Source: a virus
IMG/VR virus record: IMGVR_UViG_3300042888_002665
Reading direction: 5' to 3' (one strand)
DNA: 64,000 nucleotides
Both the position numbers and the translations under genes were made by a program. Of the stretch, positions 3,078 through 63,740 are shown in pieces. Numbering within the stretch: the first letter of the stretch is position 1; each line of letters opens with the position of its first letter. Under the pieces are notes generated by a model that made no database searches, was not told the DNA's origin, and saw nothing but the letters and a program-made list of their open reading frames with translations.

Positions 3078-3279
3078 TATTCTTGTTGTAGTATAATTTA
3101 TAGTTCTTACTGTTTATTTCCTCGTACCAATGTGTTTCGACCCAATCACCTGTTTGTTCTTTCTCCATTTGATGAGCCTGCTTAAATGAACGTGCATTGT
3201 GTACCAAATCTTCAACACTTTCTGGAAAAATGATGATTGTATCATAAAGCCATTCTACTGCTGTTTGCTTATTTTCCAT
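3064..3279 (-). CDS. hypothetical phage protein (KQTAVEWL-type N-terminus)
   Basis: MENKQTAVEWL start typical of small Bacteroidota-phage proteins (from memory). Confidence 0.6.
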   Translation of the reverse strand: MENKQTAVEWLYDTIIIFPESVEDLVHNARSFKQAHQMEKEQTGDWVETHWYEEINSKNYKLYYNKNNEWK

Positions 3280-3526
3280 TATATACGTGTTCTAATTCTT
3301 CTAATTGTTCGTCGTATTCTAATTTTTTAAATAATCCACTCCAATGATAGAATGGTAATTCAACGAATTGATACCAATCACCCTCCTTAGCGTTATATTT
3401 TGCTGCTTCCGGGAAGTATGTGTGTGGTCGTATATCTAATATATGATATATTTCACCACGTTTAATGTGTGGTCGTTCTGGATGATAAACATTAGTTCCA
3501 TCCTGAATGCATATTACTTTATCCAT
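3269..3526 (-). CDS. hypothetical protein
   Basis: ORF track; tightly packed operon. Confidence 0.6.
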   Translation of the reverse strand: MDKVICIQDGTNVYHPERPHIKRGEIYHILDIRPHTYFPEAAKYNAKEGDWYQFVELPFYHWSGLFKKLEYDEQLEELEHVYNGK

Positions 3527-38441: not shown

Positions 38442-38456
38442 AACATTTATTTTAAG

Positions 38457-38530
38457 TGGACCAGGTAGGAATCGAACCTACTACCTTTTGATTATGAGTC
38501 AACTGCTCTAACCGAGTGAGCTACAAGTCC
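38457..38530 (-). tRNA. tRNA(CAT), most likely Ile2 (lysidine) rather than Met
   Basis: GGACTTG TA GCTC ACTCGGTTA GAGC A GTTGA CTCATAA TCAAA AGGTA GTAGG TTCGATT CCTAC CTGGTCC A; U6-U67 mismatch; no CCA. Confidence 0.88.
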
Positions 38531-38655
38531 AAATGGGGGATTGAAAAAGCCCGGCCCCCGTCCGTCCAACCAACGATTTGGCCCACGCGCAGTTCTTATG
38601 GGATGCTTAATGGTGATTTCGATCTAGCTGCCCTGCAGAACAGACTAGCGGTATG
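38531..38655 (-). ncRNA. putative structured RNA between tRNA genes
   Basis: About 53% GC (hand count) in an AT-rich genome; four local hairpins. Confidence 0.35.
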
Positions 38656-38833
38656 CTGTAGTGGGTGGATTCGAACCACCATAGGGCAATTAGGTAAAGG
38701 ACAATAGCGCTTGCAAGCTGGTGGTCTACCCCGATATCCTTACTTTATTTCGTTATTCCCCGCCCCCGAGACAGGAGGGTGCGTATGCCTCAGATTAGAG
38801 ATACTATCTCTTTTCTTCTTTCGCCACACTACA
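38656..38833 (-). ncRNA. 178-nt tRNA-Asp(GTC)-like RNA with enlarged D-loop and 82-nt variable arm
   Basis: Acceptor TGTAGTG/CACTACA + G73, D-stem GCG/CGC with GG, anticodon arm CCCTC-CTGTCTC-GGGGG, T-arm GGTGG-TTCGAAT-CCACC. Confidence 0.75.
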
Positions 38834-38839
38834 ATTTAT

Positions 38840-39256
38840 TTACTTTAAATCTAACTCTAATTGATTACTTCCTGTCGTTGGTTGTTGTTGTGGTAATGTA
38901 GATGTATAACTCCAATTAGAACCACTAGGATTCCACAACGTCGTTGTAGATGGATTATATGTAATAGTTCCACCACTTCCGGTTGCCACCGTCAATATTC
39001 CACTAGTTGTACCACAATGTATCTTATATGGATTAAATGGGTCTGATGGGTATGGTTGGATAAATGGTATTGTTTGTATTGGTGCTGAATTTGGTGTTCC
39101 CCATCCACCTTCACCAATCGGAGAACCATAATCAGGGCAGTCTTTAATTTTGTCCAATTCCGAAACAATGGTTTCCCATTGCTTCGGTGTTGGTCCTTCT
39201 TCATTTACTGCTTTAGTAAATCCTTTAAGCCAGAATATAAATTGTTCCTTATTCAT
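38840..39256 (-). CDS. hypothetical protein with Pro/Thr/Gly-rich tail
   Basis: EQFIFWLKGF...PTPKQWETI motif. Confidence 0.65.
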   Translation of the reverse strand: MNKEQFIFWLKGFTKAVNEEGPTPKQWETIVSELDKIKDCPDYGSPIGEGGWGTPNSAPIQTIPFIQPYPSDPFNPYKIHCGTTSGILTVATGSGGTITYNPSTTTLWNPSGSNWSYTSTLPQQQPTTGSNQLELDLK

Positions 39257-40877
39257 ACATGTTTATGTCTACTGGTTGGTCTGATTTTTTATCTTCAGGT
39301 TTATTATATACAATCGATTCTGTAATCAAAATCGTACCTGCAACTGATACTGCGTTTTCTAATGCTAATCGAGTTACTTTAGTAGGATCGATAATACCAT
39401 CATTAATTAGATTATTAATGGTTTTAGTTTTTAGATTGTATCCATGTTCTGAAGTAACATCAGATAATCGATTTACAATACCGAATGATTCTAAATTTTC
39501 GTATCCGGCATTAGATAATATCTTTAGGAATGGAGAAGTACAAGCACGATAAACAATATCACGTCCTAAATCTAAATCTACATTATCGTATTTTTTATCA
39601 GCTAGTACTTGACGAGCATGAATTAAAGCAACTCCACCACCAGGTAATATACCTTCCTGTAGGGCTGCTTTGGTTGCGTGTAAAGCATCATCAACACGGT
39701 CCTTTTTCTCTCTCATTTCTACTTCCGTAGGAGCGCCGATATTAATTACTGCTACACCACCTGATAATTTGCCTAAACGTTCTTGTAATTTTTCACGTTC
39801 AAACATTGATTTAGCATTATCGATTTGTTGTTTTAAATCATCAATACGTTGCTCAATTTCCTCAACATTACCTTTACCATCAACAATTGTAGTTGTTTCT
39901 TTAGCCACTGTAACTAAGCGAGCCGAACCTAGCCAATCGGAATTGAATTTCTCCAATTTCATTCCCTTTTCTGGTGAGATAACTTGCCCGCCTGTTACTG
40001 TAGCAATGTCTTCTAAGATATGCAAACGGCGATCTCCAAAATCAGGTGCTTTAACTACTGCTGCTTTTAGAATACCACGCATTTTATTTACTAATAATGT
40101 TGATAGCGCTTCACCATCAATATCTTCAGCAATAACTAACAATTCATCATTTGATTGTGATAATGAATTTAGTAATGGTAGTAATTCTTTAACTTGAGTT
40201 AAACGACCATTATACAATAAAATCTTAGGATTGTTTAATGTAGCAGTCATTGTATCGTTATTTGTAACAAAGTATAATGATTTATATCCCTTATCGATTT
40301 GGATACCTTCTACAATCTCTAATGATGTTTCGCCAATACGAGATTCCTCTACTGTAACTACACCATCTACACCTACTGCTTGCATTGCTTCAGAAATTAA
40401 TGCACCGATTTCCTCATCACCATTAGCTGAAATAACTGCTACTTGTTTGATTTGCTCGTCTGAAGTAATATCTTTGGATATTTCTTTGATTCGGGTAATA
40501 ATTTCTTTTGTTGCTTGCTCAATACCACGTTTAACTTCTACTGCATTTGATCCAGCTTTAATAGCGTTGAATCCGTCTGCAATCATAGTTGATGCAAGTA
40601 ATGTAGTTGTAGTAGTGCCATCACCAGCTAAATCAGCTGTTTTAATAGCTGCTTGCTTTAATAGTTGTGCTCCAATGTTTTCAATTGGATTTTCTAACTC
40701 AATAGAACGAGCAACCGTAACACCGTCTTTAGTTGATACTGGGTTTTCACCTGCATTATCGATAATTACGTTACGACCGTTTGGTCCTAATGTACACGTA
40801 ACTGCATCTGATAATTTGATGACGCCTTTTAATAATTTGGTTTTTGCGTCTTGATTAAATACTATTTGCTTACTCAT
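39249..40877 (-). CDS. groEL: chaperonin GroEL
   Basis: TLGPNGRNV, TKDGVTVA, AGDGTTT, GIQIDKGY, ERLGKLSGGVAVI, GGGVAL, IIDPTKVTR; lacks the GGM tail. Confidence 0.97.
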   Translation of the reverse strand: MSKQIVFNQDAKTKLLKGVIKLSDAVTCTLGPNGRNVIIDNAGENPVSTKDGVTVARSIELENPIENIGAQLLKQAAIKTADLAGDGTTTTTLLASTMIADGFNAIKAGSNAVEVKRGIEQATKEIITRIKEISKDITSDEQIKQVAVISANGDEEIGALISEAMQAVGVDGVVTVEESRIGETSLEIVEGIQIDKGYKSLYFVTNNDTMTATLNNPKILLYNGRLTQVKELLPLLNSLSQSNDELLVIAEDIDGEALSTLLVNKMRGILKAAVVKAPDFGDRRLHILEDIATVTGGQVISPEKGMKLEKFNSDWLGSARLVTVAKETTTIVDGKGNVEEIEQRIDDLKQQIDNAKSMFEREKLQERLGKLSGGVAVINIGAPTEVEMREKKDRVDDALHATKAALQEGILPGGGVALIHARQVLADKKYDNVDLDLGRDIVYRACTSPFLKILSNAGYENLESFGIVNRLSDVTSEHGYNLKTKTINNLINDGIIDPTKVTRLALENAVSVAGTILITESIVYNKPEDKKSDQPVDINMYE

Positions 40878-41169
40878 TGTCTTCTGTTTCTATTAATGCT
40901 AAAACGTTATTTTCTGATGTAACGAGGTATTCTACCCCATCATACTCTACTCTTACTGGTCCTATTTTAGGTAGGATAACTTTATCACCTACTTTAAATG
41001 TAGATGGAATTAATTTACCTTCTCCATTTCGGCGTCCAGGTCCTACTCCGATAATAGTTCCAACGTGGGGCATTTCCTTGCCCATATCTGGTACTACAAT
41101 TGAACCGTAGAATTTCTCTCCCGATTCTTCATTTTTAACGACGATATTGTCGAATACTGCTTTTATCAT
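40870..41169 (-). CDS. groES: co-chaperonin GroES
   Basis: AVFDNIVV, GSIVVPD, VGPGR, VGDKV; ATGA-type overlap with groEL. Confidence 0.93.
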   Translation of the reverse strand: MIKAVFDNIVVKNEESGEKFYGSIVVPDMGKEMPHVGTIIGVGPGRRNGEGKLIPSTFKVGDKVILPKIGPVRVEYDGVEYLVTSENNVLALIETEDNE

Positions 41170-63042: not shown

Positions 63043-63057
63043 AATAATAAATATTTG

Positions 63058-63129
63058 TAGCCCCAACGGGAATCGAACCCGTGACTCATCCGTGAAAGGG
63101 ACGTGACTTAACCGCTTGTCGATAGGGCC
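63058..63129 (-). tRNA. trnE: tRNA-Glu(TTC)
   Basis: GGCCCTA...CGTCC-CTTTCAC-GGATG...CACGGGTTCGATTCCCGT TGGGGCT A. Confidence 0.93.
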
Positions 63130-63136
63130 ATTACTG

Positions 63137-63209
63137 AGCTTCCGGTCGGGGTCGAACCAACGGCCTGCTGATTACAAGTCAGCTGCTCTACCATCTGAGC
63201 TACGGAAGC
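63137..63209 (-). tRNA. trnT: tRNA-Thr(TGT)
   Basis: GCTTCCG TAGCTCAGATGGTAGAGCA GCTGA-CTTGTAA-TCAGC...GTTGGTTCGACCCCGAC CGGAAGC T. Confidence 0.93.
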
Positions 63210-63314: not shown

Positions 63315-63321
63315 ACCTATG

Positions 63322-63406
63322 AGGAGAGTGAGGGATTCGAACCCCCGGTCCTGTTACAGACAATAGTTTTCAAGACTACCTCGTTCGACCGCTCTGACAA
63401 CTCTCC
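63322..63406 (-). tRNA. trnS: tRNA-Ser(TGA)
   Basis: GGAGAGT acceptor, GTAGT-CTTGAAA-ACTAT, long variable arm, GGGGGTTCGAATCCCTC. Confidence 0.92.
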
Positions 63407-63412
63407 TTACAT

Positions 63413-63429
63413 AATAAACATAATCAGGA
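63413..63429 (-). promoter_or_regulatory. phage promoter motif upstream of tRNA-Ser/Thr/Glu
   Basis: TTTCCTGATTATGTTTA, matches consensus TTTCYTWATTAnnTTTA; hairpin AGGAAAT/ATTTCCT at 63426-63444. Confidence 0.6.
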
Positions 63430-63446
63430 AATCTTTTATTTCCTAG

Positions 63447-63521
63447 AGTTGAGTGCTGGATTCGAACCAGCGATTTTGTCGTTTTGCAAACGAGTGCGTT
63501 TGGCCACTCCGCCAACTCAAC
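63447..63521 (-). tRNA. trnC: tRNA-Cys(GCA)
   Basis: GTTGAGT/ACTCAAC + U73, anticodon loop TTGCAAA, GCTGGTTCGAATCCAGC. Confidence 0.9.
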
Positions 63522-63526
63522 TTATG

Positions 63527-63597
63527 CACGTCCTAAAGGATTCGAACCTTTATCATCGCTTTTGGAGAGCGGTATGCTACCATTGCACCAAGGACAT
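63527..63597 (-). tRNA. trnW: tRNA-Trp(CCA)
   Basis: ATGTCCT/AGGACGT + G73, loop CTCCAAA, AAAGGTTCGAATCCTTT. Confidence 0.9.
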
Positions 63598-63601
63598 AAA
63601 T

Positions 63602-63630
63602 AAAAAACCCCTAACTTGTGATTAGGGGCC
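63602..63630 (-). terminator. intrinsic terminator immediately upstream of tRNA-Trp
   Basis: GGCCCCTAA-TCACAAG-TTAGGGG-TTTTTT. Confidence 0.85.
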
Positions 63631-63657
63631 GATTTAATATATTATACGTTATCTATA

Positions 63658-63720
63658 CTATACCCCTATCCTAGCTGTTTCCTGCCAAGTCGAATTACAA
63701 TATGTAGATGTTGTTTTCAT
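63658..63720 (-). CDS. putative attenuator leader peptide MKTTSTYCNSTWQETARIGV (20 aa)
   Basis: ATG 4 nt after a TATATTTAT promoter core (63725-63733); ORF ends over a TAGGGG complementary to the terminator 5' arm. Confidence 0.6.
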   Translation of the reverse strand: MKTTSTYCNSTWQETARIGV

Positions 63721-63740
63721 TTCGTATAAATATATTTACT

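Follow-up and report, generated by a model that had tools for sequence, protein, structure and literature searches.

A predicted ribosome-mediated transcription attenuator with a codon-matched leader in front of tRNA genes of an uncultured phage and its relatives

The DNA examined here (hereafter the window, meaning the whole 64,000-nucleotide stretch of IMG/VR virus record IMGVR_UViG_3300042888_002665) comes from an uncultured, AT-rich phage (32% G+C) and consists of a run of minus-strand genes. The DNA polymerase of this phage is only 34% identical to its best cultured match, and the longest contig carrying its proteins is 177 kb. A 67-codon gene (63944-63741) sits upstream of a promoter-like box, which is followed on the minus strand by a 20-codon ORF, an intrinsic terminator and then tRNA-Trp, Cys, Ser, Thr and Glu. 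The positions of the ORF, the terminator and the tRNAs agree with the order of parts claimed in the original prediction. The features are as follows:

63726-63734, minus strand: promoter-like box TATATTTAT, ending 5 nt before the ATG and invariant in five relatives
63658-63720, minus strand: leader ORF of 20 codons plus TAG, based on the ORF list, relatives and codon counts
63662-63668, minus strand: antiterminator arm, TAGGGG and one further T, within the final ORF codons, pairing with 63629-63623 (hairpin of -11.8 kcal/mol)
63635-63660, minus strand: inner A-U helix of the antiterminator
63602-63630, minus strand: intrinsic terminator, with the stem at 63630-63606 and the U-run at 63607-63602 (-12.8 kcal/mol)
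63526-63597, minus strand: tRNA-Trp(CCA), predicted to be directly gated
63446-63521, minus strand: tRNA-Cys(GCA), predicted to be directly gated
63415-63431, minus strand: second promoter-like motif before tRNA-Ser, probably driving Ser/Thr/Glu independently
63321-63406, minus strand: tRNA-Ser(TGA), tRNA call
63136-63209, minus strand: tRNA-Thr(TGT), tRNA call
63057-63129, minus strand: tRNA-Glu(TTC), tRNA call

The TATATTTAT box resembles the Bacteroidota -7 element TAnnTTTG, and ATATTTATA occurs eight times on the minus strand of the window and never on the plus strand. From this promoter style, together with the cultured phages that carry the element (see below), a Bacteroidota host was inferred. 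The leader mRNA is probably nearly leaderless, the start site being unmapped. The box itself had been recognized before, but its coordinates were one base off (63734-63726 is correct). Similarly, pairing in the spacer had been proposed and a helix does exist there, but its exact strands had to be corrected to TAGTATA (63660-63654) and TATATTA (63641-63635); all cells of this helix (100%) were paired in five sequences, with one-sided changes only.

As previously counted, 10 of the 20 leader codons belong to the five amino acids of the array (five Thr, two Ser, and one each of Cys, Trp and Glu), and the Trp codon indeed starts 19 nt before the antiterminator arm. Both Ser codons are TCN and could be read by the TGA anticodon. 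Codons 7-14 (Y C N S T W Q E) include one codon for each of the seven tRNA types in the longer array of relatives, which leads us to infer that the Tyr and Gln codons, which have no matching tRNA in the array of the window, are probably leftovers of tRNA genes lost by this strain.

Using the amino-acid frequencies of the window itself, 10 of 19 codons matched where 4.0 were expected (P=2.4e-3), and for codons 2-14, a range chosen post hoc, there were 9 matches in 13 (2.7 expected, P=2.6e-4). The leader RNA folded more stably than shuffles (z=-3.1). An Rfam search of the locus returned tRNAs only, the leader having no match at E values up to 5. As far as can be judged from sequence, the codon match at this locus alone is modest, and it is the comparison with other loci that decides. 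With one 20-codon ORF, the P value is no lower than about 2e-3, which would leave room for chance, in that AT-rich intergenic DNA could contain such an ORF and hairpins by coincidence; this idea is contradicted by the comparative tests presented below (codon tracking, arm specificity, ORF excess and frame, relatives), and the weight we give it is next to nil.

Loci of relatives were collected through the upstream gene. In the close relatives, the promoter box, the start codon, the TAGGGG arm (63668-63663 in the window, invariant), the spacer and the terminator were almost unchanged. Leader codons 6-15 varied, including a 3-nt indel, and a stop codon was never gained. Many relatives have the longer array, which consists of Tyr-Trp-Cys, the promoter motif and Ser-Thr-Glu(-Gln). 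Every short-leader variant kept at least one Tyr, one Cys and one Trp codon, with shifting positions. His and Pro codons were present in the leader of a relative with His and Pro tRNAs (L001), and an extra Ile codon in that of a relative with an Ile tRNA (L005). Leaders before arrays of 23-24 tRNAs (L008 and L109) contain all 20 amino acids; that of L008 has 43 codons and precedes 23 tRNAs. The joint loss of leader and terminator in L004 and L007 also agrees with an attenuator. Thus, the comparison of homologous loci that had been proposed as a check showed that the ORF frame was kept and that the codons track the tRNA set, but the expected two-sided changes of the arm were not seen among five close relatives; across unrelated modules, the arm changes along with the terminator. 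We also noticed unexplained spacers of 80-107 nt before tRNA-Trp in two relatives (L002:4430-4535 and L001:4515-4594), which are possibly degenerate tRNAs or other small RNAs.

The caveat that a second promoter might serve part of the array was borne out. The motif at 63431-63415 is the common promoter motif of this phage (15 minus-strand vs 3 plus-strand matches in the window) and precedes tRNA-Ser in every close short-leader relative whose contig extends that far. Because this conserved motif precedes tRNA-Ser, the attenuator would directly gate only the tRNAs ahead of the motif in this lineage, and its predicted targets are chiefly Trp and Cys (Tyr too in relatives). Read-through past it would add to the Ser/Thr/Glu supply. 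The second motif also fits the possibility that the ORF encodes a functional small peptide, that the terminator merely ends its transcript and that the tRNAs are made from other promoters; so does the absence of the element from some relatives, as in L004 and L007, in which leader, terminator and internal promoter are all missing together. However, only 4 nt separate the U-run and tRNA-Trp, so there is no room for a tRNA-Trp promoter after the terminator. In addition, the leader peptides of different modules show no sequence relationship, their make-up follows that of the tRNA set, and the pairing of each arm is specific for the terminator of the same module. A functional peptide is therefore very unlikely.

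To assess how common such elements are, viral contigs were scanned with a pattern that required a tRNA T-arm after the end of a terminator. The pattern included no leader information and selects one terminator type; a preliminary terminator-only scan had returned mostly unrelated terminators. Leaders were then chosen by a rule blind to composition. They were present in 157 of 188 modules, representing 130 loci and 73 clusters at 40% identity, which are not fully independent. Among AT-rich modules, 132 of 154 had an ORF of 14-60 codons ending 20-37 nt before the terminator, compared with 12.2 ± 2.6 in shuffles; such an ORF was found in 8 of 26 GC-rich modules. The putative attenuator of the window is thus one member of a widespread class.

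With one leader per cluster (73 clusters), the fraction of codons matching the module's own tRNAs was 0.376, vs 0.232 after permutation (z=12.8), and 0.91 of tRNA types had a leader codon (0.665 permuted). All 20 amino acids were commoner in the leader when their tRNA was present (1.2- to 5.9-fold). At 21 loci with several modules, the own leader beat that of the neighbour in 48 of 48 swaps (0.48 vs 0.16). Individual cases include a Leu-rich leader before seven tRNA-Leu (L234), a Tyr/Lys-rich leader before Tyr/Lys tRNAs (L203) and separate Ser/Arg and Lys modules (L224). The match was confined to the ORF frame (z=12.4), with z values of -1.0, -0.5 and -1.4 in the other frames and strand, which points to translation.

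This frame dependence also bears on sensing without translation, in which tRNAs would pair directly with the leader RNA in a T-box-like manner, or the RNA would have some other role. Codons complementary to the downstream anticodons are present, as such pairing would require, but the matching is limited to one open frame with start and stop, the leader matches neither the T-box nor any other Rfam family, and many different codons stand in an unstructured row. We consider this explanation extremely unlikely. In T-box riboswitches, as in the phage leader, tRNA status sets the choice between terminator and antiterminator; unlike the phage leader, they bind uncharged tRNA directly via structured RNA and without translation. 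As judged by the missing Rfam match, the leader lacks the T-box hallmarks, a stem I with specifier loop and a T-box bulge, and its signal is frame-dependent; it is not a T-box.

Synonymous codons were tracked clearly for Arg. At the cluster level, leaders before CGN-reading tRNAs had 14 CGN and 1 AGR, and those before AGR-reading tRNAs had 10 AGR and 2 CGN (p=8e-5). Ser and Leu leaders mostly follow the amino acid, using both codon boxes even with one isoacceptor encoded, and synonymous tracking was weak or absent for Ser, Leu, Lys, Gln and Glu. Within modules, tRNAs tend to share anticodon base 36 (232 pairs vs 172 ± 8.5 expected at 21 viral multi-module loci, which are not independent). In such groupings, Pro/Gln/His/Leu/Arg occurred together, and so did Tyr/Ser/Trp/Phe/Cys.

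The pairing of the arm is also specific. The mean energy of the own antiterminator duplex was -11.4 kcal/mol, vs -7.9 kcal/mol with swapped arms or codon-shuffled leaders (permutation s.d. 0.23). The arm starts at a median of 25 nt before the end of the stop codon. Codons matching the tRNAs were over-represented between about 54 and 12 nt 5' of the arm (0.35-0.61 vs ∼0.22) and fell to background from -6 on; this drop near the arm is the edge that a ribosome footprint would produce. In the window, the antiterminator and the terminator are mutually exclusive. Folding with and without a ribosome had been suggested as a check; here the ribosome was represented by a mask assumed to extend 10 nt beyond the A-site codon. 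The 5' arm of the terminator was captured with a probability of 0.94-0.98 for A-site codons up to 14, and of at most 0.15 from codon 16; over 52 modules, the capture was 0.86 vs 0.16. It should be noted that the full-length RNA of the window favours the terminator for nearly every ribosome position, and since the terminator wins at equilibrium, control must be kinetic and co-transcriptional, as in trp.

The partial transcript without a ribosome was predicted to antiterminate in the window and in 87% of modules, by equilibrium folding only. The same type of folding predicted a 5' hairpin of -14.2 kcal/mol that covers the arm of the window. The element may therefore report general ribosome lag besides specific codons, and complete failure to translate the leader may, in these models, switch the tRNAs on. 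The geometry claimed in the original prediction, that of trp/his/thr-type attenuators, thus holds for the structural criteria but is complicated by the predicted antitermination of an untranslated leader; in strict trp/his attenuators, a 1:2 protector hairpin causes termination when the leader is not translated (superattenuation). The same switch might mainly gauge overall translation (lag, shut-off, antibiotics, infection timing), with the codons only providing fine-tuning. Besides the naked-leader prediction, this would suit the leaders with all 20 amino acids, and a trn operon of Anabaena is induced by general translational stress (PMC10272220). However, strict per-module, in-frame tracking and tracking of the Arg box would not be maintained in that case, and we regard it as unlikely.

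Taken together, we consider it highly probable that the element is a ribosome-mediated transcription attenuator that gates tRNA genes and forms a feedback loop on tRNA supply, although its switching in vivo is inferred. Its anatomy, conservation, codon tracking, arm specificity and geometry are observed. By contrast, that the ORF is translated, that this is coupled to transcription and that the element switches in vivo are inferences, as is the natural trigger; transcript, 3'-end and ribosome data are lacking, and transcription-translation coupling in the host is an assumption. RNA runs contained no more than 20% of the words and consisted of contigs from relatives, which reveal neither transcript ends nor levels. 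This reading, which the original prediction had already put forward, is supported by the ORF excess at a fixed distance from the terminator, the in-frame tracking, the leader-specific pairing and the placement of codons 5' of the arm. A leader written in the codons of its own tRNAs before a switchable stop suggests that the tRNAs are probably made only when these codons are read slowly. In the proposed mechanism, host RNA polymerase would start just before the leader ATG, with a ribosome trailing. If codons 2-14 were decoded at normal speed, the ribosome at codon 15 or beyond would cover the TAGGGG arm and the terminator would form, and no Trp or Cys tRNA (nor Tyr tRNA in relatives) would be made from the leader promoter. 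If a working charged tRNA were short, the ribosome would be slow at its codon, and the free arm would capture the emerging 5' strand of the terminator, allowing read-through into the array. The new tRNAs would read the same leader codons, closing a negative feedback loop.

The most likely natural trigger, also inferred, is the loss of functional tRNA during infection. A stalled ribosome is blind to whether a tRNA is uncharged, missing or cut. Since extra tRNA cures tRNA loss and not a lack of amino acids, and in view of the Arg box tracking and the base-36 grouping, we lean to a tRNA-centred signal. A more specific and still tentative hypothesis, to which we give slightly less than even chances and to which no defence gene or expression data can be tied, is that the leaders are inducible counter-defence sensors: destruction or inactivation of a specific host tRNA would stall the ribosome on the codon roster and induce the replacement tRNAs of that module. 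If so, the codons of each leader would name the tRNAs that stop working when that host is infected, and the grouping of modules by anticodon class would reflect which tRNAs are the targets of nucleases or modifications.

A related case is the E. coli pheST attenuator, in which a leader peptide responds to charged-tRNA supply and regulates an aminoacyl-tRNA synthetase operon; unlike the phage element, it concerns one amino acid and synthetase output and is chromosomal. The phage element meets the general criteria of leader-peptide attenuators: a short leader ORF, then an intrinsic terminator and then the genes under control, regulatory codons that correspond to what these genes do, an antiterminator exclusive with the terminator, and an arm that is freed by a stalled ribosome and covered, without the terminator, by a ribosome at the stop codon (given the assumed footprint). 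It shares with trpL, hisL, leuL, pheL, the multivalent thrL, ilvGMEDA and ilvB a short ORF with regulatory codons and an arm overlapping the ORF end before an intrinsic terminator. The strict trp/his criterion, that the genes under control serve synthesis, import or charging of the sensed amino acid, was not fulfilled, and the element falls outside the amino-acid-operon class because its regulated genes are tRNAs instead of enzymes. Unlike in amino-acid operons, the leaders sense 1 to 20 amino acids, often with one codon each and not runs, are phage-borne with several modules per genome, and have no clear dominant predicted 1:2 protector hairpin. For amino-acid-operon leaders, stalling was likewise predicted to give read-through (PMC1183508), and the Corynebacterium ilvB uORF motif is a related leader attenuator (PMC11109978). 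The closest functional parallel is the Anabaena trn operon, a spare tRNA array kept off by the repressor TrcR and induced by translational stress (PMC10272220); unlike the phage element, it uses a protein repressor at initiation and is not codon-specific. T5 tRNAs are reported to counter the tRNA-cleaving defence PARIS AriB (10.1101/2025.02.04.636281), which would give a phage a reason to supply tRNAs when host tRNA is destroyed; the abstract of that study deals with these tRNAs and the nuclease and does not mention conditional transcription. A literature search, in which most subscription journals were outside reach, found no published attenuator of this type controlling tRNA genes. Within that scope, leader-peptide attenuation, itself a known mechanism, would be new as a control of tRNA genes; the phenomenon is real and widespread.

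The presence of tRNA genes in phages has long called for an explanation, and codon bias, host tRNA decay and anti-tRNA defence have been considered. A codon-matched attenuator implies on-demand tRNAs, which speaks against codon bias with constitutive expression as their sole role, and makes the question testable. Attenuation is thereby extended beyond amino-acid supply and reaches tRNA gene dosage, and the natural sensors cover 1 to 20 amino acids. The leader itself can serve as a reporter that shows which tRNA fails, at what time and in which host.

The element was found in cultured phages, namely Cellulophaga phi38:1, Calle_1, phi4:1 and phi10:1 and Tenacibaculum Gundel_1, and the hypothesis is therefore testable now in phage-host pairs (Cellulophaga phi38:1, phi4:1 and phi10:1). 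Two modules each were found in phi38:1 and Calle_1; in phi38:1 (L551, KC821614), these are unannotated leader-terminator units at 1796-1910 and 3245-3412. A Tyr-like tRNA after the second terminator of phi38:1 was missed by ARAGORN. An RNA-seq study of phi38:1 infection reported six intergenic phage ncRNAs (PMC5335546). In Flavobacterium phage immuto_2-6A, which has few tRNAs, no terminator or leader was found, so the element is not universal. In cellular genomes it was sporadic, with matching leaders (judged by eye) before single tRNAs or small clusters, for example in Patescibacteria (Trp, Asn), an Acidobacteriota MAG (Cys), Puia (Pro/Gln/His/Arg) and others; some of these cases may be mobile DNA. 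The usual Bacteroidota Thr-Tyr-(Gly)-Thr cluster had no detectable leader element. Codon-matched leaders were seen in cellular assemblies L449, L491, L506, L525, L541 and L581, comprising Acidobacteriota (Cys), Puia (Pro/Gln/His/Arg), Terracidiphilus, Saprospiraceae (Gln) and two others (Asn). In a Ca. Shapirobacteria MAG (L497:1500-2900), a two-Trp leader, a terminator and tRNA-Trp are followed by a gene whose N-terminus looks like that of tryptophan synthase beta; this arrangement possibly connects the attenuators of trp operons with those that gate tRNA genes. A two-Trp leader also precedes tRNA-Trp in a member of Paceibacterota (L518).

Some other features of the window were observed. Between tRNA-Ser and tRNA-Thr lies a 110-nt structured non-coding element (63320-63210, minus strand), and a pattern derived from it matched 69 viral stretches, nearly all with the same motif. 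It shows compensatory changes in several helices, has no Rfam match and often does not adjoin a detected tRNA; it is possibly a ribozyme-like or processing element, its function being unassigned. A solitary tRNA-His is located at 871-800, where no leader-terminator was seen. Upstream of a tRNA-Met at 38530-38456 lies further sequence, tRNA-like or structured, that ARAGORN left uncalled (38456-38900, minus strand). Finally, phage genes resembling GroEL and GroES by their N-terminal sequences are present at 39249-41169.
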